A DNA stretch of 51,736 nt from a virus (Duplodnaviria > Caudoviricetes): positions 1-51,736 of IMG/VR virus record IMGVR_UViG_3300025864_000003. One strand, written 5' to 3'. The position numbers and the translations under genes were made by a program. Shown one piece after another: positions 8,552 to 37,200 of the stretch. Under the pieces are notes generated by a model. It was not told the origin of the DNA and ran no database searches. It was given only the letters and a program-made list of their open reading frames with translations. Position 1 is the stretch's first letter; each line of letters starts with the position of its first letter.

Positions 8552-9279
8552 GACTTCGGCGGGATGATGCGCCCGGCACTGGTCGCTTCGTAGCCGATAG
8601 TGCGGCTCTTGATGCACACCTCGCCGCCGTTGGCCTGGCTACCAGAAGTACTGGTATTGCCACCAATGGTCGGTACCCGGCTGTTTCTCACGGGTCCGGT
8701 GGAGACTTCTACGTGGCCGCCGTGGTAGCAGATGATTATGTCTCCAGCCTGCACGTCAGACCAATCAACCTTCTTCGCCTGCCAACCATGAGCCTTACGC
8801 CCCTCGCGGAATGCCCGCGCTAGGTTCGGCACGTAAGCGGCGTTGCCGTAGAAGAGGTCGTGCATGATGTTGCGCAATTTGTTGTAGTCATCCTTTGTGT
8901 CGTCAAGAATGTCGTTGATGATGGCTGCGCGGATTTGGTCCCAAATGGCGAAGGCTGCGCACCATGCGTAGCCGCCCGGAAGGTATACGGCATGGAGAAA
9001 GATGTCGACCCACTTGCCAGTGTTGCTGTCGCCTATCTCGTGAACGCCGACCTTAGCCCTGGCGACACGGACGGCGATCTGGCCGAAGGTGAGGGGGTGG
9101 AAGTGCCTCCATAGTGCGTTCTTGTTCGTAGTTGCCTTGCCGTAGTGGCCAGAGACACGCCAAGCCAGCCGGCGGGCACCGAGGCCCCACACCGCAGTCC
9201 CATAGTTTATCTTGGGGACTTCAAGCTTGTTCTTCTCGGCGTCGGCACGCATATCCTTCTTCAGCTGGATAATATTCAA
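8548..9279 (-). CDS. Endolysin, CHAP-domain amidase/peptidase
   Basis: GVHE..SN, AWCAAF (catalytic Cys), AGDII, GHVE (His), TIGGNT; SD GGAGG before TTG. Confidence 0.85.
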   Translation of the reverse strand: MNIIQLKKDMRADAEKNKLEVPKINYGTAVWGLGARRLAWRVSGHYGKATTNKNALWRHFHPLTFGQIAVRVARAKVGVHEIGDSNTGKWVDIFLHAVYLPGGYAWCAAFAIWDQIRAAIINDILDDTKDDYNKLRNIMHDLFYGNAAYVPNLARAFREGRKAHGWQAKKVDWSDVQAGDIIICYHGGHVEVSTGPVRNSRVPTIGGNTSTSGSQANGGEVCIKSRTIGYEATSAGRIIPPKS

Positions 9280-13859: not shown

Positions 13860-16800
13860 TTAGTAGTTATACCAGTCTAGAAGTCTGCCGCCGACGTTAG
13901 AACTGCCGCCGAAGTATTCCTTTATGTCGTTTTTGAAGCGCGGGTTCACCGAGGACATTTGTTTGATAGCGGAGTTCAGATCACCGGACAACTGTCCGCC
14001 CAACTTGGTGCCTACACTGTTACCCTTTGCCTCATACCAGTCGCTGTAGCTATTCGTTAGTTGCTTTCGGTAGTCGTGAGCCGTCTCAAGGATTCGGTGC
14101 CACATCCTCACTCTACCAATCTCCAACGCTCGCTGTTCCTCGGGTTGCGCCGTCCCCTTAGCCGAGAATTTCTCCCACGCAGACTCAATAGCATCTGAGT
14201 TCGGAGACTTGCTGTTGATTTCGCGGTCTCTCACCTTCACATACCCCAACCAGGCCGTATGCGCCTCGCGTGCACGAGGTCCAGTTCCTATGGTGGTGAG
14301 GACTGGCTCCGAAAAGTGACTTATGTGCTCCAGTCTGTCATCAAGCCCCCCGATGAGGGCCTTGCCGCCCTTCAGTCCGCCGAGTAACTTCTTCTGTAGG
14401 GCGTAGTAGGCGTTGTGACCGTCCTTGTATTCCTGGGAGGGCGACTTGGCCTTGTGCCAGTTTTCGTAGGCTACCCTTAGTTGCTCCTGGGCCATATTTA
14501 TCTTGGGGTCAGCCGGTTTGCCAGTGACGAGCTGCAACTGATCCGATGTTATGAAGTACCACTGGTCAGAGGCGAGGGCTATGGTTGCCTTCAAGATGCC
14601 CTGCTTCTGTTCGGCCCTCGTGGCAGCAATGTTCTGACTTTCGGGGGTCTCCGAGATAAGCCTGTTGCCAAGATTCGGGTCCGCCATCATGTTCTTCAGT
14701 TGGAAGGCGCGACTCAAATCTTCATCGGAAACGGTGAATGGCGTAAGACGTACTTCTCCCTCGGCCGTGGCGGCTTGCTGGATGAAGTTGATGTCATACT
14801 CGTTATAGTCCAGGCCCCTGGACCTTATGATGTCGTTCCATAGCCCCCACCCGAGTCGCCTGCCAGTGTCCGGGTCCACCCCTCCGGGGTGCTCGAAACG
14901 ATATAGAAGCTGAGACTCGCTAAACCCCGTCTCCCTGCCCACCTGCTTGGCAATGGCCTTCGCCCAGTCCTTACGTTGTTGTATCAATTTCTCAGTACCC
15001 TTTTGAAGGGCCTCCAGCTTGATATCCCCCATGTAGTAAACGGAAGAGGTTCTATCTTTACCCGCCACGTAGTGTCCGCCGTAAATATCGGTGATTACGT
15101 TGTGGTAGGCCGCGATTCGTGCGGCATCGGTCAAACGTTCCCCACCATTGTTGAAGAATGACTCCTGCCAGTCCACGGGATTCATTTCCATGTTGGCGTT
15201 GTCGTAGTTGTATGGTGACTGCCACCACTTCAGCATGTTGAAGTTGGCTGGGTCCTTCTTCATGGCTAACTTTTCTTCGTTGCTGGCGTCGTGATAACGT
15301 AGGTCCTTGTCGAAGTTGGGATACTTCTCGCGGACAAGGTTCATCCCGGCGAAGTCTTTTGCCTTCAAGGCGGACTGGTACTCAAAGTACGCACTCTGCA
15401 TTTCTCTCGGTTCCTTGGGCGAGTACATGACGCCGAAGGGAGTGGGGGAGAAGCTCTTGGTCATCTCGTTATACAGGGCCTCTGGGCGAAGATGCTTTTC
15501 TCCCCATCCACCCTTCCCACCAGTCAGCGCCCATAGAGCCTTCACTCCGAGGGGTGCATTATCAAGATTTACACCCGTAGAACCGCTCCCCTCGGGTCCG
15601 TACTTTGTCCAGGCCATGATGGCGTTAGCATGCGCGGTTTCGAGCTTGTTTACATCTCCGAAGATGGACTCCGAAATATCTCCCAGGGTGGTGTCACCGG
15701 TGAGCCCGTATGTCAACCTTGCTATTCTTTGGAATGGAGACATGGTGTTGCCCAGCCCCTTCAGGAGGGGGAAATTCGCATAGTCCTTGGGGTCCTCTCC
15801 CAGGGCGCTTATGCCCGCCCGAATACCTATCAGTGGTATTAGGCCGGCGCTCGGGGACTGCGCAGCCACCTGATCCCAGAATCCCGCCCCAGTCTCTGAG
15901 TCCGGTGCCCAGAAGGGGATTTGCGGTGTGATGAACTGGCTGTCGCCGCTGGTGAATCCGAATGGGTCCCGAAGAAACTCGGGATAATTCTTCTGGAACG
16001 CGGCAAGGGCCAGGGGGTGCTTTGCAACGGCCCCCGCCCAGTACACGAAGAACTGTCGATAGGCGCTGATGAAGGGAACCATGTTTCTTGACATATCCTC
16101 GAACATGGTGGTGGAGTTGCTGTAGGCGGTCTGGTGTGCATACTTCACGGCGGTCTCGCCTGCTATTCGATGCATCTCCTCCGGACTGGTTTCAATCTCG
16201 CCAGCAGCCCTAGCCAACTTGTTCCGCTCGATGAGTTTGTTGCGCACCGTGTAGTATTTATCGTTGAACAGCTGTCGTTTTGTCCACTCCCCAATGCCCT
16301 GCATCAACTTGCTACTACCGTATTTGAAGACGTAGTGGTAGGGGTTGAGGGCAGAGGCTCCATACAGGGGATTCCTCAGTCCAATCTTTACACCCTCCGC
16401 AAGGCCGTTTCTTATGGGGGCGTTTACTGGATATAGGAACGGCTTCCCCGGGCCACTTCCCCACGCCTCTAGTTCCTGCACGGTGGGGGCTGCCCCCTCC
16501 ATTGCCTTCCTCATCGGCTCGTGATCGGAAAAGAGTTTCGCCCTGTCATACCAGTTGTTACACCATTCCTCAAACTCGGGGGTGTTGTAAGTACCGGGAC
16601 CCGCGCCCTTGCCCTTGATACTACGATAGGTATCATTGAGGAAGTTCCTCATATCGGTCGCGTCCTGCGTGTATTCCATCTTTCCTGTTTTGGGATTTTT
16701 TACGCGCTCATCGCGTATGCGACGAATGAAGCCCTTCAGGTCCTTGGGGTTTGTGGGGAACTTTCCCTTCCCACCGAAGTTCTTGCTGGCGACGAGTCTC

Positions 16801-19800
16801 TTGACAATAGGCTCTCTAGCCCAGGAGCTAAGATCATCACGAAGGGCTGCATAATATCCGGGCTCAGTCGGAGTGAGTGCGTGCCACTCTCCCGAGGTGT
16901 TCGCCATATCCCAGTCTCGTGCCATCCCGTCTCTCAGCTTCAACTCGAACTCAGTGAAGTCGGTGCCGTCTAATTTTACTTCCTTGACCCCCCTGCGGAG
17001 TCCGGTCTTTCTGAGAATCCAGTCGGGCTTGCCAGCTGGCAGGAACATGGGTTCGCCGTCAAGGTCTTTGCGCAGTTTGCGCACGGTCCACATTCTGCTG
17101 ACTACACCCTCCGGAACAAATCGCGCTATCTCATCCCCGATGTTGACGCGAATGGGGAAGGCTAGCGAGGCCATAACGGTTTCCTTGAACATGCGCATTA
17201 CCGGCTCAGCCACCAATTGATCCGCAAGCATGAAGTCTCTTGGAGCCTTTCCGCTCATATACCATCCGGCGATGCGGGGGTCATACTGGTGATAGATGTG
17301 GGTGCGGATTTGACCCTGCTTGAACGGCTGTGCCGTGCGCATATCACTAAGTTCGTTTACAGCCGTGTCATATTTGATTTCCTCACTGGGAGAAAGTCGC
17401 TTCTTCTGACCAAGTTCTTGTACGATCTTGGCAGCCTCGGTCCTTCTCGTTACCTTGGCGGTGGCCTCGAATACCGCGTCACTCATCTTGCCGATGTCGG
17501 CGGGAGATGCGCCAAGTTCGGTGGACAACTTGGCCATATCAATCCGAGCCTGAGCAATGGCGGGGTTCGTGATCAGTTGGTCGCGCTGGCGATTGAGTTG
17601 GGCCAGCTCGCGTCTCTTGTTGGTGAGGGCGGCTCCGCCCTTCTTCCCCTTGCCGGTTTTTACTCCGGTGTGTGCATATCTAGTCTGGTCGCGACCCGTA
17701 AGTTCATACTTCTTTGTCTTTGGATTGTACTTTCTAGTCTCCGTATATCCGGTGCCATCACTGCGTAGGTGGGTGCGCTGGTTGTCTTTCCACGCACTAG
17801 TTTTTCCCGTTGTGGGTGCGGGTTCCCCAGGCTTCACCACGTGCTTCGCATAATAACCCTGCTCAAGTTGGTCCACCTCGTCTCCCAGCTGTGTCTCCTT
17901 ACCCGCCCACAACTCGTCCCACTTGCGCAACGCGCCCTGTGACACCTCATCCAGACTGCGCTCCAGATCGGAAGGAAGAACAAGGGAACCCTCCACCAAG
18001 GTTCTTTCTCCGGTCTTCTTGTCGATGGCATACTTGGGGAGGTAAGAGTGACCCAGTATCTCATCCACATATCGTTGTCCACGAGTCCAGAGAATATGCC
18101 GATTGTACGCCTTGAAGTCATCCAGTTTGTCGCCCAGATTGTTTTCAAAGGTTTTCCACATCTCATCGACTATCTTCTGCTTGCCTCCGGGGTGAGCCTC
18201 GTACACCCTGCGGGAGAAGTCCTGCAATTGCCGAAGAGCTGCCTTTCTCCCCGCCCTGGTGGTGGCACCCATGCGAATAGCTTTTCCCACCTGGAATGTG
18301 TCCTCGGCAGCAGTGGCAATGTCGGACGTTTTGCCATACATGGTCATGGTGTTGAAGATACGAGCCCAACCCAGTTGGCCGAAGCCCCTCTCCCCGAGGG
18401 AGTAGCGAAGTTGCTTTATCATAGCACTCTTGCCACCGTCAATTTCGACGCCCTTGATCTCCAGCTTCCTCAGCAGACCCTCCACCTCGATGTGAGACTT
18501 GCTGGCCGCAACCTGCTTCACCAAGTCCTGTATCTCGGGAATGTCCTCGGGAGCCTTCAGTAACCGATTGACTACGAAGGGGTCCTCAATCTTGGCAAAG
18601 AGCTCTGCGTTGGTGCGAAGGAAAGCGGGTGGGGCATATGTATGTACTTCTCGTTTCTTGACGAGGCCCTTGACTGTGCGCGTGACGGACTCTACGAGTC
18701 CACCGCCCAAACTGTACATCGTGGCACTTTCTCCGTCGATTCCGTGGGGAAGAAATGGGCTGGTGGGGTCGGAGATGTGCTTGTGTAGTACCTCGTCGGC
18801 GCGCGCAACATATGAGTTGTATGCATCGAAATCGCCCTCAACCCTACCCACATCGAGGGGTTTTCTCTCCATCCAGTCGTTGCCCACCTCCTTGAATCCG
18901 CGCTTGGCGTACACGTCCTTCAGTGCATCTTTCGCCATCTTCTCGGCCCCAAAGGGAACAGCCTCAAGCCGCAGGGTAATACCCGAGTTGTCTGCGGCGG
19001 ACACCAGATCGTCAATGACGCTCCCGCCGAATCCCTGTCCACGCGACTCCAGTGGAGTCTCGAGATTCTTCACTACGACCTTGGGTCCCTCGGCCTTCAT
19101 GGCCAGACGAACGTCATTCTCAAGATAACCTGCGGTGAGAGGCTTGCCGGTTTCATTCGGCACGTTGCGGAACGAGAGGAAATCGTCCATAAAGTTCTCT
19201 GGTGTATCTGGGGGAGACGGTTTGCGTGGTGGCGCATCCCTCGGATCAAGCGCCTTGAACTCGTCCCTATCCAGTGGTTGCACGCGAGGCTTTCCATTTA
19301 CATCTTTCGCGACCTTGACCAGAGCTGGGTCTCCCGGTGCCTCGGGGTGACTGAGGTGGAGACGTCCCCTCCCAGCATCCACGGCCCCGGGGAAGAACTC
19401 TCGTGGTTTGCCCGTTGCGTCTTCCCTGAGTTTGGCAACACGCTTGCCCCAGTTTGCTGCTGGTTTCTTTTTCCCGACCGCCTTCTCCAGGTCGTCAATG
19501 AGTCCTGAGTCGATCTTTCCGCCCCCGGCCACAACCTTTTCAAGATGTAAAAGATGGTTCAAGCTATCGGGCATAATGGTCCGAACGTTCATTGAGATGG
19601 TTTCATTGGCAATCTTATTGCGTTCCCGGAGAGCGTCGGCGTGCTCCTTGCTATCCTTGCCGTAGATTTTCTCGGCCATATCAACTTTCTCTCCGGCCTT
19701 CTGCTCTAGGGCGGTGCGTTCCCTCACGAGTGCCGATGTCTGCTCCAACGTTCTCACCTCGGGGGGGGTCGGCGTTGGTCTATGGAGTTTCCCGGCAGCA

Positions 19801-21692
19801 TCTTCGGTGGCCTTAGCCTCCCGGATGGCCTTGCCCGCATTTCCACCAGCGGGCATGCCAGCGTTTTCAAAGGGAACACCACTAGGATGGCTCAAATCGA
19901 GGAATCCCGCTTCGCTTCCGGCCAACTTCCCGAACGCCGCCCAATCAATTATGTAAGCACTGCCCATGCGAAAACCCGCGCGAGTCGCAACAAATGCGCC
20001 ATGTGCACCAGCCTGTGCCCCGGACACAACCAGCGGGTCAAGTGTACTCCCAACATACACCTGTAACGCAAGGTTCGCTATATCGGACGCATCCTTGAGA
20101 TAGGCGGGCATCTTCCCGGTCTCGCCGTAAGAAGCGTTCTCAAAGGCGATGTGGAACAGGTTGTCGCCACCAGCCTCCTCGCGTGCCTTCTTCCACGTGT
20201 CGGCATCCATCAGGGCCTGCCAGTTGAAGGGCTGGTCCTTTTCCATCTTCGCCTTACCACCAGATGCCAGTCCCCTTGCCTTCACCTCGCTCTGCCAGTA
20301 TCCCTGGGTCGCATAGTCCAGCGCCACTTGCGCAGTCGCTAAACCCTTGAGCGCCTCGTTGAACGGTCCATAGATGTAGCCGCTGGCTTCGCCCACATCC
20401 TTACCCATTTCCTTCAGAACGGTTCCAACCCCCGGCACCTTGAGGACCTGCTTTGCGGGCCAGAGAAGTGTTCCGAAGGCTTTTCCGATAGACTCCATGG
20501 CGGTGTCCGTCTCCTCCTCGTACACCTCGCGTTGCTTTGCTGGAAGACGCTCTGCATCGAACTCCTTCACATATTGCGCGCGTCTCTCCGTCTCACTCAT
20601 GCCGATGGGACGAGAGAACTGCCACTCGTCGTAGGAGAAGGTTTTTACGGTATCGTCGTCTGCATATCGCATGGCCTCCAGGGTAGACTTCACGGTGTCA
20701 CTCTGCGCCCACTGGGTAGTATCCAGTCCGAGTCTGTGAGCTGCCCGCTCTACACGATCCTTATTGAAGGCAATATTGCGCACCGACGCCATAACGTCAT
20801 TGGCCTTCGCGGTTTGGGAATAGTCACCGTACACCTGATATGCCCACTGACCAGCAAAGACATACTTGTTCTGTATTTTCTCCCACTCCGGTTCCCACTC
20901 CGAAGAGTTGGGGTCGTACTTTATCTTCACCCCACGTTGTGCTAGTCTCTTGGCCATCTCTTTTTTGAACTTGACAATCTCCTCATCGGGGATGATGGGG
21001 CCTACGAAGTCTGAACCGGTAACACGCCATGGGTCCTTGGTGTCACGCTGATACTGTTTTGCGAGCTGTACGCTCTCTAGAGTTGGTTGCGCGGCAAAGG
21101 GACTTGCCAGCGTACCCCTATTTCCCATCGCCCTTGAACCGGCTGGTGCGGGTGCAGAGGCAACACCACCACCCTTCACACCGTCAAGTTCTACCACACC
21201 CTTTCTCTCTCCGTCCGTCAGGTCGCCCCTATCCATGTAGAACATGTCTCCCGCGCGCAGTGCGGGTTTCTCTTCATCGGTAGCATCCGACGTGGGTGAC
21301 CATAACTCATCGTAGAGACCCTTATTCTCCTCGGGGTCTTGAGGCATGGTCCCCTTGTCCAGAAGGAGCTGGAGGGTCGTTATCGGATCGGGAAAAGCTT
21401 TCTGTTGAGAGTAGTATGGGTTGATGATGTTCGCTAGGGACTGTTCCTGGTCCGATTCGGCCGGGGGCTTCGCTATAGAGAGAAGTTCGTTATAGGTCTT
21501 CGGGGGTGCCTTCGGGGCAGCCGTTTTCTGCGGGATGGAGGGAGCGGGGGTGGGATGAGACTTTGCTGGGGTTAGCGTGGGCGCAGCGGGATTACGACTA
21601 CCGCTGGGGAGTCCCTGTTCGCCAACCGGCTTCTTTTTCTTCTTCTTCTTGGGAGGTCTATATGGCTGGTCTTTGGGACCAATAATCGCCAT
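13860..21692 (-). CDS. Giant (2610 aa) putative internal virion / DNA-ejection protein with embedded GNAT-like domain
   Basis: Size and position between portal and scaffold; RGQGFG...YAKRGF acetyltransferase-like motifs. Confidence 0.7.
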   Translation of the reverse strand: MAIIGPKDQPYRPPKKKKKKKPVGEQGLPSGSRNPAAPTLTPAKSHPTPAPSIPQKTAAPKAPPKTYNELLSIAKPPAESDQEQSLANIINPYYSQQKAFPDPITTLQLLLDKGTMPQDPEENKGLYDELWSPTSDATDEEKPALRAGDMFYMDRGDLTDGERKGVVELDGVKGGGVASAPAPAGSRAMGNRGTLASPFAAQPTLESVQLAKQYQRDTKDPWRVTGSDFVGPIIPDEEIVKFKKEMAKRLAQRGVKIKYDPNSSEWEPEWEKIQNKYVFAGQWAYQVYGDYSQTAKANDVMASVRNIAFNKDRVERAAHRLGLDTTQWAQSDTVKSTLEAMRYADDDTVKTFSYDEWQFSRPIGMSETERRAQYVKEFDAERLPAKQREVYEEETDTAMESIGKAFGTLLWPAKQVLKVPGVGTVLKEMGKDVGEASGYIYGPFNEALKGLATAQVALDYATQGYWQSEVKARGLASGGKAKMEKDQPFNWQALMDADTWKKAREEAGGDNLFHIAFENASYGETGKMPAYLKDASDIANLALQVYVGSTLDPLVVSGAQAGAHGAFVATRAGFRMGSAYIIDWAAFGKLAGSEAGFLDLSHPSGVPFENAGMPAGGNAGKAIREAKATEDAAGKLHRPTPTPPEVRTLEQTSALVRERTALEQKAGEKVDMAEKIYGKDSKEHADALRERNKIANETISMNVRTIMPDSLNHLLHLEKVVAGGGKIDSGLIDDLEKAVGKKKPAANWGKRVAKLREDATGKPREFFPGAVDAGRGRLHLSHPEAPGDPALVKVAKDVNGKPRVQPLDRDEFKALDPRDAPPRKPSPPDTPENFMDDFLSFRNVPNETGKPLTAGYLENDVRLAMKAEGPKVVVKNLETPLESRGQGFGGSVIDDLVSAADNSGITLRLEAVPFGAEKMAKDALKDVYAKRGFKEVGNDWMERKPLDVGRVEGDFDAYNSYVARADEVLHKHISDPTSPFLPHGIDGESATMYSLGGGLVESVTRTVKGLVKKREVHTYAPPAFLRTNAELFAKIEDPFVVNRLLKAPEDIPEIQDLVKQVAASKSHIEVEGLLRKLEIKGVEIDGGKSAMIKQLRYSLGERGFGQLGWARIFNTMTMYGKTSDIATAAEDTFQVGKAIRMGATTRAGRKAALRQLQDFSRRVYEAHPGGKQKIVDEMWKTFENNLGDKLDDFKAYNRHILWTRGQRYVDEILGHSYLPKYAIDKKTGERTLVEGSLVLPSDLERSLDEVSQGALRKWDELWAGKETQLGDEVDQLEQGYYAKHVVKPGEPAPTTGKTSAWKDNQRTHLRSDGTGYTETRKYNPKTKKYELTGRDQTRYAHTGVKTGKGKKGGAALTNKRRELAQLNRQRDQLITNPAIAQARIDMAKLSTELGASPADIGKMSDAVFEATAKVTRRTEAAKIVQELGQKKRLSPSEEIKYDTAVNELSDMRTAQPFKQGQIRTHIYHQYDPRIAGWYMSGKAPRDFMLADQLVAEPVMRMFKETVMASLAFPIRVNIGDEIARFVPEGVVSRMWTVRKLRKDLDGEPMFLPAGKPDWILRKTGLRRGVKEVKLDGTDFTEFELKLRDGMARDWDMANTSGEWHALTPTEPGYYAALRDDLSSWAREPIVKRLVASKNFGGKGKFPTNPKDLKGFIRRIRDERVKNPKTGKMEYTQDATDMRNFLNDTYRSIKGKGAGPGTYNTPEFEEWCNNWYDRAKLFSDHEPMRKAMEGAAPTVQELEAWGSGPGKPFLYPVNAPIRNGLAEGVKIGLRNPLYGASALNPYHYVFKYGSSKLMQGIGEWTKRQLFNDKYYTVRNKLIERNKLARAAGEIETSPEEMHRIAGETAVKYAHQTAYSNSTTMFEDMSRNMVPFISAYRQFFVYWAGAVAKHPLALAAFQKNYPEFLRDPFGFTSGDSQFITPQIPFWAPDSETGAGFWDQVAAQSPSAGLIPLIGIRAGISALGEDPKDYANFPLLKGLGNTMSPFQRIARLTYGLTGDTTLGDISESIFGDVNKLETAHANAIMAWTKYGPEGSGSTGVNLDNAPLGVKALWALTGGKGGWGEKHLRPEALYNEMTKSFSPTPFGVMYSPKEPREMQSAYFEYQSALKAKDFAGMNLVREKYPNFDKDLRYHDASNEEKLAMKKDPANFNMLKWWQSPYNYDNANMEMNPVDWQESFFNNGGERLTDAARIAAYHNVITDIYGGHYVAGKDRTSSVYYMGDIKLEALQKGTEKLIQQRKDWAKAIAKQVGRETGFSESQLLYRFEHPGGVDPDTGRRLGWGLWNDIIRSRGLDYNEYDINFIQQAATAEGEVRLTPFTVSDEDLSRAFQLKNMMADPNLGNRLISETPESQNIAATRAEQKQGILKATIALASDQWYFITSDQLQLVTGKPADPKINMAQEQLRVAYENWHKAKSPSQEYKDGHNAYYALQKKLLGGLKGGKALIGGLDDRLEHISHFSEPVLTTIGTGPRAREAHTAWLGYVKVRDREINSKSPNSDAIESAWEKFSAKGTAQPEEQRALEIGRVRMWHRILETAHDYRKQLTNSYSDWYEAKGNSVGTKLGGQLSGDLNSAIKQMSSVNPRFKNDIKEYFGGSSNVGGRLLDWYNY

Positions 21693-24784: not shown

Positions 24785-26527
24785 TCAGTGTGCTGGGTTG
24801 ACATAGTGCTTGAGACGAGAACCGGGAGTCGAATAACTGCGATATTCGTTCTGGTTCAGCTTCATATTCTGAGTACACAGCCACATTGCCATAACAAGGT
24901 CACAGGTGCCCTTGGGATACATGAGAAGCTCACCGATGAACTCCTCGGCCCTTTCCTTGTCTGAGGACTCCTTGTATGGAATTCTAAAGCGACCATCCTG
25001 TATCATTTGCCCCATAGCAAACACCCCGGCCTCTGGATCGGTCTTATTAGTTCCGGTGTAGTGTGGGCGAATGATGTTCTTGTCTGTATAGGGTTTCATG
25101 CGGTCATTGTCTATAATCCACTTGCCGAACGCATTCTTCTCAACAGTTCCCACCTTATAGTTGTACTTGCTCAGGAAACCCTCAATGTTGTAGTCTGGAT
25201 TGCCCTCCAGAAGATGATCCAGCATTCTATCAAAGTTATCCTGAAGTTTGAGGAAGTCGATAAGGTAAATGGATGGATTGTCCTCTTTAGGGTCATATCC
25301 CAGGATGACGTATGCGGCATACGCACTCCAGCGCGAACGAGACCCTGACGCGGGGTCAAAGCCTGCGTATAGCTCCCAGGTGTCATCAACGTCGGCGAAA
25401 CTACGCTCGGTGTCAAGACATCCCTTGTGACTAACGCGTTGTCCGTTGAATTCCTCCTCTTGTCCTCTCACCCAAGCCTCACGGAACGCCATCTCCTCTT
25501 CGTTGTATGCGATGTTTTCGTAACGCTTGGCAAACGCTAAAGGACCGATGGAAATACGTTCTCTATTCAGTGCCTTGGCGTCCAACATGTTGTTTGACAG
25601 CGATAGGGTCTTTTTCTTGTCCTTCCAACAGGAGAACTTGACACAGGTGAAGGTCGGGTCTCTCATGACCATGGCATAGAAGGCTTCTGGATGGAAGATG
25701 GTGCCGACAATGGCAGTGCTCCAATAACGTGCCGTATTTGACCACTTGATAGACTTGGGGCGTTTCACTCTCCCGAGAGCGTCATAATTCCAAATCGGAC
25801 GCGCAGATGTAAACGGCCCGATACGCATCCACTCCATGAGCTTATCTCGCATATCAGGGGTCCTGGCGGTATCAGGTGTTTCCACGTCGTCAATATAGAC
25901 TCTATCACTTCGTTTACCGAGTTCTGCGTGGCTGTTAGTTCCGTAGAATTCAAAGTTCTCTCGCACGTCGCGAAACTGACGTTGTTCGATAGAAAATGCT
26001 TGATTACTCCATGGTATATTTTTGTCTCCAGAGTGGAAATTGCCGAAGTCTGCGACCAGACGAGGGTTCTGGAGCTCCCGTCGAATAGTTGTAGAAAACG
26101 AGAAGGCTTCGGTTTCGTTTTTTCCAATGTATTGGTTTCGGGCGTTAGGATTGTCACAGGCTTCCATAACAGGGATTGCTCTAGTAGAGACAATCGTAGT
26201 TTTGCCGAAGCCAGCAGGCCAGAGAAGAAGGACATTAGGTTTCTCCCAATAGTATGGACTTACTCCTGGATTGTTTCCATATCTTATCCATCCATTCTCA
26301 TACAACCACTCCATGTTGTTCTCAGTGATGAACTCGTATATCTCTCGTTCTTCATGGAACCTTCCCCTTATCAACTTCATGCTGAAGATTTGGTAGGGAT
26401 CAAGTTCAAGGTCTAGATAGTGTTTACAGAAGAGTTCCTCTGCCATTGGGGAATCTAGGAGAAGGTATTTGTACTGACCCTCATCCTCGAGATTGCGAAA
26501 TTCTCTATCTGGATCAATCGACTTCAT
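24785..26527 (-). CDS. terL: Terminase large subunit
   Basis: Walker A PAGFGKTT, Walker B VYIDDVE, VGT coupling motif, RNase H nuclease AGFDPA...DLVMA. Confidence 0.92.
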   Translation of the reverse strand: MKSIDPDREFRNLEDEGQYKYLLLDSPMAEELFCKHYLDLELDPYQIFSMKLIRGRFHEEREIYEFITENNMEWLYENGWIRYGNNPGVSPYYWEKPNVLLLWPAGFGKTTIVSTRAIPVMEACDNPNARNQYIGKNETEAFSFSTTIRRELQNPRLVADFGNFHSGDKNIPWSNQAFSIEQRQFRDVRENFEFYGTNSHAELGKRSDRVYIDDVETPDTARTPDMRDKLMEWMRIGPFTSARPIWNYDALGRVKRPKSIKWSNTARYWSTAIVGTIFHPEAFYAMVMRDPTFTCVKFSCWKDKKKTLSLSNNMLDAKALNRERISIGPLAFAKRYENIAYNEEEMAFREAWVRGQEEEFNGQRVSHKGCLDTERSFADVDDTWELYAGFDPASGSRSRWSAYAAYVILGYDPKEDNPSIYLIDFLKLQDNFDRMLDHLLEGNPDYNIEGFLSKYNYKVGTVEKNAFGKWIIDNDRMKPYTDKNIIRPHYTGTNKTDPEAGVFAMGQMIQDGRFRIPYKESSDKERAEEFIGELLMYPKGTCDLVMAMWLCTQNMKLNQNEYRSYSTPGSRLKHYVNPAH

Positions 26528-26666
26528 ATCGTATCTCCCCATAGGGACAAAAATCGTCGTGGTCGCCGCAGCCTAGCCACAATTCATCACCATCTCGCCA
26601 TGCAACCGCACAGTCTTCCGTGCACCATTTCCAACAATCACCACAAAGAACGACTTTCGCTATCAT
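26514..26666 (-). CDS. Small Cys-rich protein (50 aa)
   Basis: MIAKVVLCGDCWKW...DDFCPYGE; ATGA-coupled; read manually. Confidence 0.6.
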   Translation of the reverse strand: MIAKVVLCGDCWKWCTEDCAVAWRDGDELWLGCGDHDDFCPYGEIRYEVD

Positions 26667-28302: not shown

Positions 28303-28667
28303 GACGCGTCGTCTACATTGCCGGTAAAATCTCCGATCCGGATTGCATCCGCGTTGCCGAGAACCTGCAACGTTTCACCCAGATGGAACACGACCTGTTG
28401 TGTGCCGGATACGCTCCGATAAACCCAGGAGCCGATTGGGGGGCGGTGTCTCTTGGCGGAGTCGCATACGAGGACTTGATGGCCCGTGATAGGGCACTGT
28501 TGACGAAGTGCGATGTTGTGTACTTCATGATTGGTTGGCGGGAGTCCCTGGGAGCCCTGCGCGAACATAGGTGGGCCAAACGCTGTGGAATCCCCTGCGT
28601 GGAGGAGAAGGTTGGCGACGGGGAGTATGGGTTCCGTAGTTTGCTGTTCGCACTGGAACCGGCATGA
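28299..28667 (+). CDS. DUF4406-like nucleoside 2-deoxyribosyltransferase-fold protein
   Basis: VYIAGKIS...GYAPINP...LLTKCDVVYFMIGWRESLGALREH.WA...GIP. Confidence 0.8.
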   Translation: MRRVVYIAGKISDPDCIRVAENLQRFTQMEHDLLCAGYAPINPGADWGAVSLGGVAYEDLMARDRALLTKCDVVYFMIGWRESLGALREHRWAKRCGIPCVEEKVGDGEYGFRSLLFALEPA

Positions 28668-28858
28668 TGGGATGCGACCATCCATATCGCAACGAACTCG
28701 CCGGTCAGGACATGTGGATTTGCCGCATCTGTGGGAACATAGGTCGCGATGAAGAGATTCTCTATACGGCCGTGCAGGCAAGAGAGGCTTCTCGTGACGA
28801 ACTAGAGACCGAGATAGAGAGACTTCGTAGCATCATTGATAAGTACAGAGGACTATGA
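28664..28858 (+). CDS. Small Zn-ribbon/coiled-coil protein
   Basis: CDH...CRICG; coupled to neighbouring genes. Confidence 0.6.
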   Translation: MMGCDHPYRNELAGQDMWICRICGNIGRDEEILYTAVQAREASRDELETEIERLRSIIDKYRGL

Positions 28859-28859
28859 C

Positions 28860-29384
28860 ATGACCATTTTCTTCACCTCAGACCTGCACCTCGACCACTG
28901 GGCCGAGTGGCTGCAAAAACAACGCCACGAATTTCACAGTGTCGGGGAAATGAACAGCGTCCTCTTCTCGAACATCCTTCGCACCGTAAACTCCCGGGAT
29001 GAACTGTACGTTCTTGGAGACTTCGCCTGGCGTCCAGATACATTCAAGGCATACGCGGCAGCACTGGAGGCGTTATGCACGGTGCACTGGGTGCAGGGCA
29101 ACCACGATCCGAAGGTGCGACACGACCCACTGGCGCTGGACTTCCGCTACGGAAAGAAGCACTGGTATGTCTGCCACTACCCGTGGCAGTCCTTCAGACC
29201 GAACACGGTGATGCTGCACGGGCACTGTCACGCGAGAGACATAGGTGTTTCGGAAGACACTCGTCAACGTATGAGATACGATGTCGGAGTAGATGCGGAG
29301 TGGGGAGGGAGAAAGTACTTTCCAGTGTCCATCGAACAGATCGAGGCACGCATTCACAACACACAGCTAAAGTACCCAGTATAA
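28860..29384 (+). CDS. Calcineurin-like metallophosphoesterase
   Basis: SDLHLDH, LGDF, GNHD, CHYP, LHGHCH, DVGVD motifs. Confidence 0.92.
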   Translation: MTIFFTSDLHLDHWAEWLQKQRHEFHSVGEMNSVLFSNILRTVNSRDELYVLGDFAWRPDTFKAYAAALEALCTVHWVQGNHDPKVRHDPLALDFRYGKKHWYVCHYPWQSFRPNTVMLHGHCHARDIGVSEDTRQRMRYDVGVDAEWGGRKYFPVSIEQIEARIHNTQLKYPV

Positions 29385-29402
29385 CCGAGGAGGAGTAACG
29401 TA

Positions 29403-30173
29403 ATGGCAGACGCAAAGACACGAGAGCTGACCACCGCAGAAATAGATGCTAGTGTTGCCAAGGCCAACGCCGAGGCTGTCGCGGCACTTGCTGAGGCGGA
29501 GAAGCATAATTCGGAGTCGAAGAAGTACATTGCCGATGCGCGCAAACTATCGGCCGAAGCGATGAGAGCCGAGTGCTTTGCCAAGACCGAGGCCATTGAC
29601 CTTGAGCGTAATCAGGAACTACGCAGACGTGAGTTGTCTCAGGACACATTCCACCACGTTTACCAGTTCATGGGCAAGGTGTCTGAATCGTCAGTCGCCA
29701 CGGCGGTACGTGAGCTTAGTTACTGGAACCGCGACTGTCCTGGGTGCGACATCGAGATTGTCTTGAACAGTCCGGGCGGCGAGGTGATTGCGGGTATGGC
29801 GATGTTCGACTATCTCCAGTTCCTGCGCAGCAAGGGTCACGACATCACGACGGTCTGCATCGGTTATGCGGCCAGCATGGCCGGGATATTGCTACAGGCC
29901 GGTGATACCCGTGTGATGGGGCGCGAGTCCTATGTCCTAATCCATGAAGTCAGCTTCGGTGCTGGCGGCAAGATTGGAGAGGTCGAGGACGAGGTTGCCT
30001 TTGTTCGCAAGATTCAGGAACGCGTTCTCAACATCTTCAGCAAGAGGTCCCTGGAGGCTCAACCCAAGACGGGTCTCACCGTCAAGCAGTTTGCAAATCG
30101 CTGGCGCCGTAAGGACTGGTGGGTCGACTCAGACGAGGCCATGAAACTCGGCATCGTGGACATGGTAAGGTAA
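29403..30173 (+). CDS. clpP: ClpP-family serine protease with N-terminal coiled-coil extension
   Basis: LNSPGG, GYAASMA (Ser), LIHE (His), DWW...EAMKLGIVD (Asp). Confidence 0.9.
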   Translation: MADAKTRELTTAEIDASVAKANAEAVAALAEAEKHNSESKKYIADARKLSAEAMRAECFAKTEAIDLERNQELRRRELSQDTFHHVYQFMGKVSESSVATAVRELSYWNRDCPGCDIEIVLNSPGGEVIAGMAMFDYLQFLRSKGHDITTVCIGYAASMAGILLQAGDTRVMGRESYVLIHEVSFGAGGKIGEVEDEVAFVRKIQERVLNIFSKRSLEAQPKTGLTVKQFANRWRRKDWWVDSDEAMKLGIVDMVR

Positions 30174-30364
30174 AGAAGACTACCGGACAGTAGCGGCTTA
30201 TGCCGTGGAGCCGGTGCCGGGCACTCGCGATGAAGGACGCTTCAGAGACGGCGACCGTCCATTGGTAAGACCCGATTGGCACATGTGAGACGGAAAAAGG
30301 CGCGAGGGCGACAGGCGGCCTGGTAATAGGGGGGTCGCCTGGCCAATTCCGATAGAGGAGGGAC

Positions 30365-30547
30365 ATGAAGAAGTTGCTACCACCGTTCCACAGGGTGATG
30401 GAGAATGAGGGAGAGTGTGACCTTGCCAACGATAGGATAGCTTTCTTGGAAATCCGTCCGACCGTTGCTATCATTAATCCCAGCTCCGCCATGGAGGTTA
30501 CGGGCTGGGACGCGGACAATCGTCTTCTGACGATTACCTGTACTTAG
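30365..30547 (+). CDS. Hypothetical protein
   Basis: SD GAGGAGG; 60 aa. Confidence 0.6.
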   Translation: MKKLLPPFHRVMENEGECDLANDRIAFLEIRPTVAIINPSSAMEVTGWDADNRLLTITCT

Positions 30548-30557
30548 TTTGTGGGTG

Positions 30558-30563
30558 TATAAT
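30558..30563 (+). promoter_or_regulatory. -10 element (TATAAT) upstream of the tmRNA-like RNA
   Basis: Perfect TATAAT 8 nt before the RNA 5' G; no clear -35. Confidence 0.6.
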
Positions 30564-30571
30564 GAGAGAAA

Positions 30572-30651
30572 GGGGGCGGACTGGCTTCGACAGCGGATAA
30601 AGCCAAAGAGCAATCTGCTGGACACGCGTTCGATTCGCGTCGCCTCCACCA
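30572..30651 (+). ncRNA. Minimal tmRNA-like RNA (tRNA-like domain only, Ala identity)
   Basis: GGGGGCG/CGCCTCC-ACCA acceptor with G3:U70 and A73; stemless D-loop GACTGGCTTCGA; CAGCGGAT/ATCTGCTG stem; GAC linker; T-arm ACGCG-TTCGATT-CGCGT. Confidence 0.85.
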
Positions 30652-30674
30652 TCATCCCACAGAAGGAGTTACAC

Positions 30675-30806
30675 ATGGCCACGTTCAAGAAGGACCCCAA
30701 GAAACCCGCAGTCAAGAAGGGCGTTCCAAATGCAAAGCCCATCCCGATGGTGAAGAAGAAAATTTACAAGACCAAAGTCGGTCCTGTGAAGAAGACCAAG
30801 AAATAG
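30675..30806 (+). CDS. Lys-rich basic micro-protein (43 aa)
   Basis: SD AAGGAG; MATFKKDPKKPAVKK...KKTKK. Confidence 0.7.
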   Translation: MATFKKDPKKPAVKKGVPNAKPIPMVKKKIYKTKVGPVKKTKK

Positions 30807-30815
30807 GAGGACTAC

Positions 30816-30995
30816 ATGTTAGAACAGAAGACTACGGCATTCCAGCCAGCGAAGAAGACCCCCGTGGCCCCCGTTCCGGAGGTGGAGGCTCCACAGCCAG
30901 AAGAGGCTCATTTAGTCACTTGTCTCTACTGTGGTGCACAGTCTTCCGTAGATAGGGAGACGTGTTTCGCCTGTTCTTGTGTGTTGAAGAGGTAA
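30816..30995 (+). CDS. Small Zn-ribbon protein (59 aa)
   Basis: SD AGGAGG; CLYCG...CFAC; read manually. Confidence 0.7.
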   Translation: MLEQKTTAFQPAKKTPVAPVPEVEAPQPEEAHLVTCLYCGAQSSVDRETCFACSCVLKR

Positions 30996-31128
30996 ACGCT
31001 GTAAGGCGTTACGGGCGGTTCCGAGTGTGACTCGGGGGGCCGCCGGGGCGGTCTCGGTTCAAGCCCACATCAGCTTGTGGAGATGTGGACGCCGGGGTCG
31101 CCTCTTTCCATTATCAAAGGAGCACATC

Positions 31129-31302
31129 ATGAAGGAAATGTACATCTGGGTGAGAGATGAGTACAACGTCGTTGATCCACCGGACTCTCCCGACCGCATT
31201 GTGCGGGCCTATGATAAGAACACCAGCGAACTCGTCGGCGAGTGGCCCGAAGGCGGGTCCTTCCCGCAGGTGATAAGGGATGCGTATTCCCTACTCTCCT
31301 GA
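31129..31302 (+). CDS. Hypothetical protein (57 aa)
   Basis: SD AAGGAG; MKEMYIWVRDEY... Confidence 0.65.
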   Translation: MKEMYIWVRDEYNVVDPPDSPDRIVRAYDKNTSELVGEWPEGGSFPQVIRDAYSLLS

Positions 31303-31754
31303 GCACAGCGTACCCCCCTTCTGACCACCCTCTTTGTCCACGTTATACTGTGGGAGGGTAAGGAGCCCGGAGAGGGTAGGAAAATAAAAAAATATATGAA
31401 AAAAGAGTCCTCCTTCTTTGTGCAGGAAGAAGCACCCCGATGGGGGTGGGTAACACGAGTACGTCGTGTGAAGGCAAGGACATATGGAAGTCAACTACAT
31501 TGCGCTGTGGATAAGCCCCTGAATAATTTACCCTGTGTATAGTGTACCCTTCTGTTCGCATCACCCGGCCTATTGTTGTTATTTATGTGATATAAAACAT
31601 AATAAACACAGAAACAAACAGAAATGCACAGGAATCAGGGTATCCCTGCCCCTCCTACCCCCCGTCCCCTCCCCTCCCCTACTCACTATCGCCTTGGCAT
31701 TACATGTTATGTTACTATATGTGCATGTATAATCATATAGAGTAGTAGGGGTGC

Positions 31755-32062
31755 GGCGCGTGCATCCATGCGTGCGTGCATACGCACACTATGTGCATGT
31801 ATGTGTGTGTGTATCATGCATGTGCATGCGTGTGCATGTGCATGCGTGTGTGTGTAGTGCGTGTAGTACGTGTGCTGTACTGCTGTTGTATGTGCTGTAG
31901 TATACGCTATGCTATGTGCTGTTGTATGTGCTATGCTATGCTGTATGCTATGTGCTAAGTTAGATGCTAAGTTATCTTCTCATCTATGGCATAGAATATG
32001 TCATATGCTATATGCTGTAGTACATGCTATATTACGTGCTATGCTATATGCTGTTATACGCA
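31755..32062. repeat. Low-complexity tract: alternating purine-pyrimidine (TG/CA) run followed by TATGC/TGCT-type short repeats
   Basis: Directly visible GTGCATGTGCATGCGTGTGTGT... and ...GCTATGCTATGCTGTATGCTATGTGCT... Confidence 0.9.
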
Positions 32063-32226
32063 ATCGTGCTAGGCTGCCTGCTTTACGCGCGGTACTGCGC
32101 GCCCATAGAGCCTCACGCGGTACGGCGTGCGAAGCCCTGCGTATGCAGTCCTTATGGACTATGCGCGCGCACAGTCCTTTTGGACTGCGAATTCTTTACC
32201 AAAGAACGGTAAAGGCTCCCAAACCC

Positions 32227-33241: not shown

Positions 33242-33318
33242 GTGACGGTAGCATAATTGGATAATGCCTTAGGATGTGGCCCTAAGCGATGTGGGTCCGA
33301 GCCCCACCCGTCACTCCA
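33242..33318 (+). tRNA. tRNA-His(GUG), non-canonical
   Basis: Acceptor GTGACGG/CCGTCAC, D-arm GCAT/ATGC, anticodon arm TTAGG-ATGTGGC-CCTAA, T-arm GTGGG-TCCGAGC-CCCAC, encoded CCA. Confidence 0.9.
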
Positions 33319-34916: not shown

Positions 34917-34930
34917 GGAGGTTGCGGACA

Positions 34931-36367
34931 ATGATCGAGTGTCCATCCATAGAGGTGCTGGAGTCCATGGGTTTTGATTTCAACACTACATTTGGCGTGG
35001 AGTTCGAGTTCTACTGTGTAGACGAAGACCGTGACGGTGTGGCTGACCATCTCGACAGCACCACCGGCATCAGCACACGTAGTGAACACTACAACCACAT
35101 TGACAATGACCACTACTGGAAGATTGTCTCGGACGCATCCCTGGATAGTTACGAAGATGACGGGGGATACGAGTGCGAGAATTGCGAAGTAAATCCTACG
35201 TGCGACGAGGACTGTGCGTACAACTGCACCCCAAGTTATGATTGCAGCGAGTGCGAGGTGAACACATACGACGGGCCAGAAGGCGAAGGTCCAGAGTGCG
35301 GGGAATGTGCAGAGCTAAACGACTTCCCCTCGTATGAGTGCGGGGATTGCGAGCAAGAGCGATACTGTGACGAGGACTGCTCATACCACTGTAGCCGCAG
35401 CAATTCGGGCAAGGGGGGCATGGAGCTAGTGTCCCCAATCCTGCAAGGCCACAAGGGGCTGAGTCAGGTACACGCCATGTTGGAGGCGCTGGAGGGCCTT
35501 GATTGCAGCGTAGATGAGAGCTGCGGGATGCACCTGCATCTTGACGGCGAGTCTCTAACGCATAACGACATGAAGAACCTTGCGTCCCTATATGTCAAGT
35601 ATGAGGCCACCATCGACAGCATCATGCCTGCTTCCCGTAGAAACAACAGCAATTGTAAATCCATGTGCAACGCAAGGTGGGGCGCCAGGGACTACGGCTG
35701 CGAGGCTCCACGCTTGAAGAAGATTGCGGCCAAGTTCGATGAAATGGAATCCGCCAAGGTTATGAGCGAGCTTCTGGGCATATGGAGAGATCGCTTCATC
35801 AAGCTGAACCTGGAGGCTATGCACGACCACGGAACTGTTGAGTTTCGTCAGCATGGCGGTACTCTGAGTTTCGAGAAGACCATGCACTGGGTTACCCTGT
35901 GCATGAACATGAGGCGCAGAGCTGTATGCGTATCGAAGGTGAGTCTGTCTGCCGAGAGCTACCCGTCTCTGGAGTGTATGATGGACGAGTTGGGGTCCAG
36001 CGAAGAGAGTAGGGCCTTCTGGCTGAAGAGGCGCGACCAATTCGCGGAAGAGGTATCCGCAGACCGTGCTCGTGTTGAGGTGGATGAGGCTAGGCGTGCC
36101 GTACATTACGAACAGCGGGAACACGACGAGCGTGTTGCTGCACAAGAGGCTTGGCGCTGGAACGCGGAGAGAAACGAACGAGGTGCGCAGGCAAGTTGGC
36201 TATTGTGGGACTATCCGATCCCTCTGCCGGATTCGGCATACGAATTACTCGCACGAGACAGAGCCTTCTGGTATTCCCGGGGTGCCGCACAGGCGGCAAG
36301 GGCGGAGAATGAGATACGGCCAGAGCTTCTGTTCGGCGACTATTATATGGCAATGCACGTAGCATAA
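34931..36367 (+). CDS. Amidoligase (COOH-NH2 ligase type 2 / Amidoligase_2) with Cys-rich insert
   Basis: TFGVEFEF, WKIVSDASL, MELVSPIL, SCGMHLH, KLNL, GTVEFRQHGGT. Confidence 0.9.
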   Translation: MIECPSIEVLESMGFDFNTTFGVEFEFYCVDEDRDGVADHLDSTTGISTRSEHYNHIDNDHYWKIVSDASLDSYEDDGGYECENCEVNPTCDEDCAYNCTPSYDCSECEVNTYDGPEGEGPECGECAELNDFPSYECGDCEQERYCDEDCSYHCSRSNSGKGGMELVSPILQGHKGLSQVHAMLEALEGLDCSVDESCGMHLHLDGESLTHNDMKNLASLYVKYEATIDSIMPASRRNNSNCKSMCNARWGARDYGCEAPRLKKIAAKFDEMESAKVMSELLGIWRDRFIKLNLEAMHDHGTVEFRQHGGTLSFEKTMHWVTLCMNMRRRAVCVSKVSLSAESYPSLECMMDELGSSEESRAFWLKRRDQFAEEVSADRARVEVDEARRAVHYEQREHDERVAAQEAWRWNAERNERGAQASWLLWDYPIPLPDSAYELLARDRAFWYSRGAAQAARAENEIRPELLFGDYYMAMHVA

Positions 36368-36378
36368 TGGGAGGCTAT

Positions 36379-37200
36379 ATGACGAAGGACTACAAGAGGT
36401 TGTGGAAGTGGGTTGACCCCGAGGCATACAGACAGAAGATGGAGGACAAATACGAACATCACCCGCGCCTTTACATAGCATATGGAAGCAACCTGAACAT
36501 ACCGCAGATGCAGGCACGTTGCTACACTGCGAAGCAAGTAAGGGTCGTGAATCTTCTCGACTATGAGCTGGTGTTCACAGACGTGCTTACAGTCGAGCCG
36601 TTACTAGGCAGCAAGGTGCCGTGTGGACTGTGGCGCGTGACACCGGAGGACATTGACGCCCTAGACACATACGAGGGCTATCCCCACCTTTACGACAAGG
36701 TATATGTCACCATAAACATTGATGGCGTGGACGAACTGGCGTTCCTGTACGTGTTGGACATCGAATACGAGCTGTCGGCACCATACAGCGGTTACCTTCG
36801 CACCTGCCTTGACGGGTACAGGCAGTGGGGCCTTGACGAGAATGTGCTTAGAATGGCCGAGGCGGCTGCCGTGGACGCCGAGAGGGATGTAGAGAAAACA
36901 CCCATGGAGTGCTCCTCCTGTAACGTAGTTCTACCACGTCCGCTGATGACCAAGACTCGCTTATTTGGATGGATGTGCCTGGACTGTCAGGAAGTCATGT
37001 TCTACGGCCAAGACGGGAATGTGGCATCATACGGACACAACACCATAGGGACACCGAGAACATCGCTGTTGTATGATGACCTGTCGCCTGATTGGGAGAC
37101 TTGCGACCCCAGCGAGCTGGACTGGAGTCCCGGAGGCGACTATGCATATGACGACATGGGGTCGAACAGACAAGCGGATTGTGGAGGAGGATGGAGCTGA
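36379..37200 (+). CDS. Gamma-glutamylcyclotransferase (AIG2/GGCT-like) with C-terminal Zn finger
   Basis: YIAYGSNLN..QM..RC, ALDTYEGYP.LY; CSSC...CLDC. Confidence 0.9.
   Translation: MTKDYKRLWKWVDPEAYRQKMEDKYEHHPRLYIAYGSNLNIPQMQARCYTAKQVRVVNLLDYELVFTDVLTVEPLLGSKVPCGLWRVTPEDIDALDTYEGYPHLYDKVYVTINIDGVDELAFLYVLDIEYELSAPYSGYLRTCLDGYRQWGLDENVLRMAEAAAVDAERDVEKTPMECSSCNVVLPRPLMTKTRLFGWMCLDCQEVMFYGQDGNVASYGHNTIGTPRTSLLYDDLSPDWETCDPSELDWSPGGDYAYDDMGSNRQADCGGGWS

Follow-up and report, generated by a model that had tools for sequence, protein, structure and literature searches.

Does a ClpP-like protease that is encoded close to a tag-less transfer-messenger RNA (tmRNA) work together with this RNA, or do the two genes travel in the same phages for other reasons? 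The question is raised by a virus of the Caudoviricetes, IMG/VR record IMGVR_UViG_3300025864_000003. The window, as we call it below, is the whole of this 51,736-bp record, which is complete and has direct terminal repeats. A preliminary description of its sequence had proposed that protease and RNA together rewire the translational quality control of the host. The reading that we favour, with a probability of roughly 0.55, is that the open reading frame (ORF) at 29403-30173 specifies an active ClpP-fold serine peptidase of a phage accessory clade (PHROG 94) and that the RNA would be a co-travelling element, not an obligatory partner.

The protease, its fold and its relatives

29403-30173 (+): ClpP-like serine protease, 256 aa (Pfam, PHROG, alignment, model, tree)
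29433-29636 (+): long N-terminal helix, residues 11-78, rich in Ala, Glu and Lys (AlphaFold2; predicted local distance difference test, pLDDT, of 80-95 over the block)
29874-29876 (+): codon of Ser158, in the motif GYAASMAG, invariant in 32/32
29943-29945 (+): codon of His181, invariant in 32/32
30114-30116 (+): codon of Asp238, invariant in 32/32

The ORF at 29403-30173 encodes a member of the ClpP family, as seen from triad, fold and family. A Shine-Dalgarno sequence (GGAGGA) lies 8 nt 5' of its ATG. Pfam CLP_protease (PF00574) matches residues 89-255 with an E-value of 8.2e-28 (97.9 bits against a cut-off of 20.2), and a search of the whole window genome yields this ORF as the one PF00574 gene (99.2 bits). 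The best profile is phrog_94 (5.5e-49, residues 14-253). None of S158, H181 and D238 varies among the 32 aligned relatives. The three coincide with the Ser, His and Asp positions in alignments to solved cellular ClpPs, and we take them to be the catalytic triad. The intact Ser-His-Asp motifs given in the preliminary description are thereby borne out.

An AlphaFold2 model made from the alignment of relatives has a pLDDT of 90.6. Foldseek matches it to ClpPs in the PDB at E-values of about 1e-16 to 1e-17, with a root-mean-square deviation of 1.4-2.0 A over 176-181 columns and, in these structural matches, 24-29% identity to cellular ClpPs. The core is equally close to cellular and to phage ClpPs. 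About 85 residues precede the Pfam domain (the preliminary description had put the extension at some 75), and residues 11-78 are modelled as one single helix of 68 residues. An N-terminal extension of like character is found in 32/32 aligned relatives and in 80/80 fetched ClpP loci; the SPGG motif, seen in 75 of these 80 loci, lies 97-141 residues from the protein start. Alignments with solved ClpPs start only at window residues 86-93, facing chain residues whose numbers range, by construct, from about 17 to 84, which argues that the normal N-terminal axial region is replaced and not just extended.

Of 4176 candidate proteins, 1943 fall into the family at E<=1e-10. A profile scan of 185,579 species genomes returned 10 loci, mostly on small contigs of metagenome-assembled genomes from mixed phyla; the same scan gave one Mycobacterium colombiense contig and nine relatives at 41% identity or more. 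Genome contigs scanned with the single window protein yielded no relative. Going by these scans, the helix-extended family occurs almost exclusively on phage DNA.

The closest named relatives are ClpP-like proteases of mycobacteriophages (31-44% identity, E-values of 1e-22 to 1e-43). These proteins (Rimmer gp99, Gaia gp118, LittleE gp159 and Rumpelstiltskin gp86) are encoded in the right genome arms, at 57-84 kb, in a context of replication and RNA-ligase genes. Annotated capsid maturation proteases match window ClpP over the core only, at E-values of 1e-6 to 1e-10, and those of WinkNick (gp5), P3684 (gp06), K255 and AbIPP1 are encoded between the portal and capsid genes. A phylogeny against such prohead proteases had been proposed as a check. 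In the resulting tree (35 rows, quick search, unrooted, no cellular ClpPs) the four capsid-adjacent proteases are split from the rest by a long branch with a Shimodaira-Hasegawa-like approximate likelihood ratio test (SH-aLRT) value of 99, whereas window ClpP is placed with the four non-head mycobacteriophage proteins in a group of 26 rows (SH-aLRT 88). Rimmer carries both types, a capsid maturation protease (gp11) and the ClpP-like protease gp99. The expected difference from capsid-adjacent proteases is thus what the tree displays.

A further comparison is offered by G005, a complete phage genome of 61.6 kb. This phage is temperate and siphovirus-like, encodes both integrase and tape measure, and has a portal and a terminase unlike those of the window. 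Its ClpP is 80% identical to window ClpP, and this is the only protein that the two genomes share (tblastn, E<=1e-6, at least 40% coverage).

Window ClpP would assemble into ClpP-like rings. The 68-residue helix would then replace the axial N-terminal loops and project from the face where an unfoldase docks, and the helix-extended enzyme may gate or recruit substrates in a manner of its own. Its targets would be cytoplasmic proteins of host or phage, degraded during the infection and not in the procapsid.

The mini-tmRNA and the conserved element

30206-30348 (+): conserved non-coding element, about 143 nt in the window (blastn, nhmmer, RNAalifold)
30365-30547 (+): 60-aa ORF between element and mini-tmRNA, at that position in the window only; no PHROG match
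30558-30563 (+): TATAAT hexamer, possible own promoter of the mini-tmRNA (read from the sequence, 8 nt 5' of the RNA)
30572-30651 (+): mini-tmRNA of 80 nt consisting of the tRNA-like domain (TLD) only (Rfam RF00023, 68.2 bits against a cut-off of 47)
30675-30806 (+): Lys-rich 43-aa ORF, 23 nt past the mini-tmRNA, with AGGAG upstream; no Pfam or PHROG match

The TLD-only RNA had been placed about 400 nt 3' of ClpP, followed by a Lys-rich micro-protein. Both statements are accurate: 398 nt separate the ClpP stop codon and the RNA, and the 43-aa ORF lies at 30675-30806. The layout, with ClpP followed by the RNA on the (+) strand, is right as well, but the space between them is not empty, since it contains the element of about 143 nt and the 60-aa ORF. 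A homologue of the latter (76% identical) is present elsewhere in L006 (4379-4203), a contig closely related to the window at this locus.

The 80 nt of the mini-tmRNA span the whole 374-position RF00023 model, with 12 nt in place of 306 positions, and score 90.7 bits with our own covariance model (R1). The fold consists of an acceptor stem (7 bp, including G3:U), a central stem (8 bp), a T-arm and an ACCA end whose CCA is encoded; a tag reading frame or mRNA-like domain is absent in the RF00023 alignment. ARAGORN makes no call on the 80 nt, and blastn of the RNA against the phage collection gave no match, the query being too short to be informative. Support for the central and T stems comes from 24 distinct sequences, in which 133 cells are changed on both sides against 39.3 in shuffled alignments; 0/500 shuffles reached the observed value. 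The invariance of G3:U across the family alignment is partly imposed by the search pattern. Judged from its sequence, the 80-nt RNA is a genuine member of a known, little-studied family of tag-less tmRNAs.

A TLD-only tmRNA has been published for mycobacteriophage DS6A (Hudson, Lau & Williams 2014, PMC4131195; PMC11915505, both as far as their text was available). Like the window RNA it has an acceptor stem with G3:U, a T-arm and CCA, and no tag frame; our covariance model recovers it at 28478-28560 with 60.5 bits. According to the accessible parts of the same papers (PMC4131195, PMC11915505), a TLD-like molecule strongly inhibits tmRNA, perhaps by titration of SmpB. The mini-tmRNA of the window would probably be charged by the alanyl-tRNA synthetase of the host and probably competes for host SmpB.

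A promoter of its own is possible for the RNA. Besides the TATAAT hexamer of the window, the same GGTGTATAATG motif is seen 5' of the mini-tmRNA in L006, whereas a consensus promoter scan called no full promoter at 30558-30563.

Downstream, the Lys-rich ORF (fraction of Lys plus Arg 0.37) is kept 3' of the RNA in L006 and L041 only, the L006 version having 46 aa. It was considered as a general companion of mini-tmRNAs and rejected, because it is absent after most others. In an AT-rich lineage (L013, L014, L019, L029, L036, L044) the mini-tmRNA lies 3' of a 255-aa protein in which metallophosphoesterase-like motifs (GDxxDxxS...GNHE) were recognised by eye only. There, the RNA is followed by a mildly basic 53-aa ORF ending in KVKKTKGRS, which faintly resembles the C-terminus of the Lys-rich ORF of the window. 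A separate observation concerns G051:C1, a complete 211-kb phage record with a full-length tmRNA (128 bits) plus a 73-nt, TLD-sized RF00023 match (56.5 bits); the two matches are located at 8632-8704 and 55016-55391.

The element itself came forward because window positions 30211-30347 match the sequence directly 5' of the mini-tmRNA in G005 and L006 (blastn). When a further genome, G037, is included in the alignment, about 145 nt are conserved. Copies lie at window 30206-30348, L006 7690-7847, L007 9557-9708 and L135 11620-11791 (-). Within 2.07 Mb of fetched loci (blastn and nhmmer) the element is found only in the window, the L006 contig, G005 and G037, four genomes that are otherwise dissimilar. 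An exact-core scan of viral contigs gave nothing beyond two contigs already known, Rfam has no match, and the element was not found in bases 1-50,000 of DS6A, which include its mini-tmRNA and leave the last 10.6 kb outside the search. From four sequences only, RNAalifold predicts a structure of 35 pairs, with compensatory change at 10. The element is probably structured and might serve the mini-tmRNA as a leader or as a companion RNA. In relatives it stands directly 5' of the RNA, and in L006 a 126-aa ORF separates ClpP from the element; the pair of element and RNA is thus tighter than that of ClpP and RNA. As to novelty, ClpP and RNA are each of known kinds, and the element of about 145 nt is newly noticed.

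Linkage of protease and RNA within and beyond the subclade

Window ClpP belongs to a subclade of four genomes (window, L006, G005 and G037; tree support 99). All four carry the mini-tmRNA and the element. ClpP and RNA lie 398 nt (window), 601 nt (L006) and 98 nt (G005) apart, with ClpP 5' of the RNA in the first two and 3' of it in G005. Among the 80 ClpP-clade loci, which were fetched with up to 10 kb on each side, strong mini-tmRNA matches occur only in L006 (91.3 bits) and L007 (80.7 bits). A whole-contig search added G037 (the contig of L005), with the RNA at 57538-57618. In this genome the 81%-identical ClpP is 19 kb away, and a second ClpP (44% identical) lies about 2.8 kb downstream of the RNA. 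Even in close relatives, genes are gained and lost between ClpP and RNA.

Similar linkage is not seen elsewhere. A strict pattern gave 36 viral contigs with a mini-tmRNA, and a looser one at least 117 metagenome stretches; we fetched 80, with 62 distinct sequences among them. These 80 hold 206 kb of flank in all, 27 of them having at least 1 kb on both sides, and at least three are the same contigs as viral ones, given their identical lengths and ranges. A PF00574 gene is present anywhere on 5/36 viral contigs and within 2 kb of the RNA on 2/36, both of them relatives of the window; a ClpP-like ORF was found in 0/80 metagenome loci. Two of the four mini-tmRNA contigs that are at least 90% complete lack ClpP. 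DS6A has its mini-tmRNA (28478-28560) but, unlike the window, no ClpP-family gene. Conversely, and again unlike the window, Rimmer has no mini-tmRNA match with the covariance model and Gaia one weak match of 21 bits only. Since each is found without the other elsewhere, ClpP and RNA do not form an obligatory two-part machine. Overall, a linkage of ClpP and RNA is seen within the subclade, where all genomes hold the RNA and three of four have it at 0.1-0.6 kb, and fails as a general property of TLD-only RNAs.

A search for general conserved protein neighbours of mini-tmRNAs among these loci found none. A constant neighbour of the ClpP clade was likewise sought and rejected, because PhoH, sugar-nucleotide enzymes and sigma factors vary by lineage. 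We did observe RNA-processing genes at several of the loci. In LittleE (L399 1081-3133) and Rumpelstiltskin (L400 896-3037) an RNA ligase gene adjoins that of the ClpP-like protease or is separated from it by one small gene; in G037 a ligase-like ORF (KxDG motif) sits between the mini-tmRNA and the second ClpP; in G005, genes for RtcB and an RNA ligase are present at 4-6.5 kb, and DS6A encodes RtcB.

In the wider clade, 70 of 77 contigs were searched over their whole length, and 19/70 (10/38 plus 9/32) have an Rfam tmRNA above the cut-off; as a reference, the available text of PMC9004378 gives tmRNA in 2.3% of 18,146 phage genomes. Most of the 19 are full-length and 3-22 kb from ClpP, some as far as 67-107 kb. 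Given that 58/81 rows of the ClpP tree belong to one large-phage clade, these are not 19 independent events, and many contigs being fragments, identical ClpPs occur both with and without a tmRNA. When 79 viral contigs were chosen solely by a tmRNA 3' end, no ClpP of the extended clade was found among them. Some ClpP-like gene (29-66 bits) is present in 9/79, and in 4/9, AT-rich marine contigs, it is a gene of about 190 aa located 2-2.5 kb from a permuted tmRNA. The large uncultured phages L073, L077, L086, L088 and L100, with extended ClpP, have full-length tmRNAs with long tags, e.g. ADNNVDMAPSLAEADAILAKFGWTEEVAVAA.

The best surviving alternative is the functional module, in which mini-tmRNA and element divert stalled ribosomes from host tmRNA, and ClpP clears the Ala-ended or untagged nonstop products or acts in the same pathway. 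It is unlikely, though not far-fetched, and the observations that speak for it count against our own reading: RNA and element are held by 4/4 subclade genomes; ClpP adjoins the RNA in two different gene orders, in the window and G005, which share nothing else, and this exceeds what plain descent would lead one to expect; and tmRNA is found in 19/70 contigs of the wider clade. The four marine contigs, with a short ClpP-like gene of another kind near a permuted tmRNA, can be added on the same side. Random placement over the 10 near-complete genomes with both genes gives p=0.016, a value that becomes p=0.14 if G005 is not independent and p=0.61 without the subclade. As the four ClpPs form a single clade, the pairing may be one event. 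Other points against the module are the 2/36 and 0/80 counts at mini-tmRNA loci, DS6A and the two complete genomes without ClpP, the 19 kb in G037, the coming and going of genes between ClpP and an RNA that may own its promoter, and the inflation of 19/70 by one large-phage clade. In addition, the RNA has no tag for a protease to read. No AAA+ unfoldase was found among the window ORFs scanned (Pfam and PHROG), and SmpB (PF01668) was found in none of window, G005, G037 and G031. Our literature search gave no paper on the pairing of ClpP with a mini-tmRNA and none on the function of non-head ClpP-like proteases.

A bolder version would see ClpP, element and RNA as a mobile cassette for the takeover of ribosome rescue, passed between unrelated phages. 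RNA and leader would capture stalled ribosomes or SmpB, and a helix-collared, unfoldase-free ClpP would clear untagged products or a rescue factor. We regard this as a long shot. Under the reading that we prefer, the three are accessory genes that would move together in a few peat phages, plausibly through selection under the same translational stress. A joint function of ClpP and RNA is possible; the pattern is suggestive of shared selection.

Other possible roles of the protease, genome setting and significance

Improbable, in our view, is a role of window ClpP in interference with the Clp system of the host. By co-assembly with host ClpP, or by sequestration of an unfoldase through the helical collar, it would re-aim or block host proteolysis, and this would outweigh bulk degradation. 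Compatible with such a role are the replaced N-terminal region, with alignments that start at 86-93, and a core as near to cellular as to phage ClpPs. Moreover, the position aligned to B. subtilis Tyr62, a residue that presumably lines the docking pocket, is Val. The triad and the surrounding motifs are strictly kept in 32/32, however, which argues for a working protease and against interference.

The position of the gene in the genome bears on the remaining alternative.

9745-11034 (-): major capsid protein, SU10_MCP type (family scan)
Leftward structural block (-): HNH endonuclease, 769-aa protein and 2610-aa protein (ORF list and family scans)
24785-26542 (-): terminase large subunit, 2.9 kb from the ClpP gene
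28836-29384 (+): metallophosphoesterase, directly 5' of ClpP (Pfam Metallophos 3.1e-08; phrog_547 2.5e-32)
30816-30995 (+): ORF of 59 aa containing two Cys pairs (CxxC...CxxC), without match in Pfam or PHROG

From about 26.5 kb on, the structural genes are oriented leftward. A rightward, non-structural operon sets in near 27.5 kb and comprises an unknown gene, a DUF4406/nucleoside-deoxyribosyltransferase-like gene, a 64-aa ORF, the metallophosphoesterase and ClpP. That ClpP is on the opposite strand from the capsid gene and far from it had been noted beforehand and is correct (18.4 kb to SU10_MCP), although the terminase gene is only 2.9 kb off. The start at 28860 assigned to the locus in the preliminary description was misplaced: it falls within the metallophosphoesterase ORF and not at ClpP.

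It might be argued that window ClpP is a prohead protease encoded away from the head genes, its N-terminal helix serving for scaffold-like targeting. Scaffolding proteins typically contain long helices. The label 'head maturation protease' is attached to PHROG 94 and related PHROGs, and Pfam and PHROG scans of the window genome recognise no second prohead protease. The 690-aa, 187-aa and 2610-aa proteins of the head region have no Pfam or PHROG match, which leaves room for capsid maturation in trans, and the tree that separates window ClpP from head proteases is unrooted and lacks cellular ClpPs. These points speak for a head role or weaken the case for an accessory protease. A virion-associated ClpP also has a precedent in Bacillus phage G, as stated in the available text of PMC12484599. 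Nonetheless, as far as sequence comparison goes, it is very unlikely that window ClpP is the capsid protease, given its distance from the capsid gene on the other strand, its separation in the tree from the capsid-adjacent type, the presence of both gp11 and gp99 in Rimmer, and the 80%-identical ClpP in G005 next to an unrelated portal, terminase and tape measure. For the helix-extended ClpP, the database label is probably wrong.

The metallophosphoesterase was considered as the true partner of the mini-tmRNA and rejected: homologues near the RNA occur in 2/38 records searched, only L006 (83% aa identity) and G037 (73%). Several other features of the window were observed in passing. The 2610-aa ORF lies at 13860-21692 (-) in the head and packaging region, and its neighbouring 769-aa and 690-aa ORFs are, like it, without Pfam or PHROG match. 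An amidoligase gene (PF12224) followed by a gamma-glutamyl cyclotransferase-like gene (GGACT) occupies 34922-37200 (+), and a tRNA-His gene lies at 33242-33318. At about 31620-32100 the DNA may be of low complexity or made of simple repeats, as Cys, Val, Met, His and Tyr dominate the ORF translations there. The sequencing runs that contain 28600-31400 are peat and soil metagenome DNA, with no RNA run among those listed.

Compared with known systems, window ClpP is most like the proteases of Rimmer, Gaia, LittleE and Rumpelstiltskin, which have 227-259 aa, an N-terminal extension and a non-head location. These phages differ from the peat phage of the window, with its SU10-type capsid protein, in host and phage type. 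Cellular ClpP (S14; 1tyf, 3kti, 6hwn) has the same fold and Ser-His-Asp triad; it differs in its axial-loop N-terminus, where window ClpP has about 85 residues including the 68-residue helix, and in having an unfoldase partner, for which no gene was found in the window ORFs scanned. The capsid proteases of Gordonia phage WinkNick, Streptococcus phage P3684, Vibrio phage K255 and Acinetobacter phage AbIPP1 have the ClpP-fold core in common with window ClpP, whereas their genes, between portal and major capsid, are placed differently. The tmRNA-SmpB-ClpXP pathway combines a tag frame, SmpB and an unfoldase; the window RNA is without a tag frame, and no SmpB or unfoldase of its own was found among the ORFs scanned.

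Other phages combine some of these components. Bacillus phage G encodes ClpP, ClpX, a tmRNA and a separate head protease, according to the available part of PMC12484599. For Melnitz-type marine myophages, the accessible text of PMC9004378 describes a two-piece tmRNA and proposes tag-and-degrade or upkeep of the host machinery. Both differ from the window in that their tmRNA encodes a tag. In the available text of this paper and of the huge-phage paper (PMC7162821) ClpP has 0 occurrences, whereas a freshwater siphovirus paper, in the part at hand, treats ClpP as an auxiliary gene (PMC5964084).

Summarizing, sequenced actinophages with a helix-extended ClpP outside the head module number in the hundreds, and about 1,900 protein clusters from metagenomes are of the same type. 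In one small clade the gene is accompanied by a tag-less tmRNA and by a conserved RNA element. The locus offers a handle on two understudied phage accessories, the helix-extended ClpP and the tag-less tmRNA. If the coupling is not real, the annotation is still corrected, and limits are set on the weight that gene neighbourhood can carry in accessory regions of phage genomes. If it is real, it would amount to a phage-owned rewiring of ribosome rescue, and a mobile cassette, if that reading were true, would give the phage private control over translational quality control.

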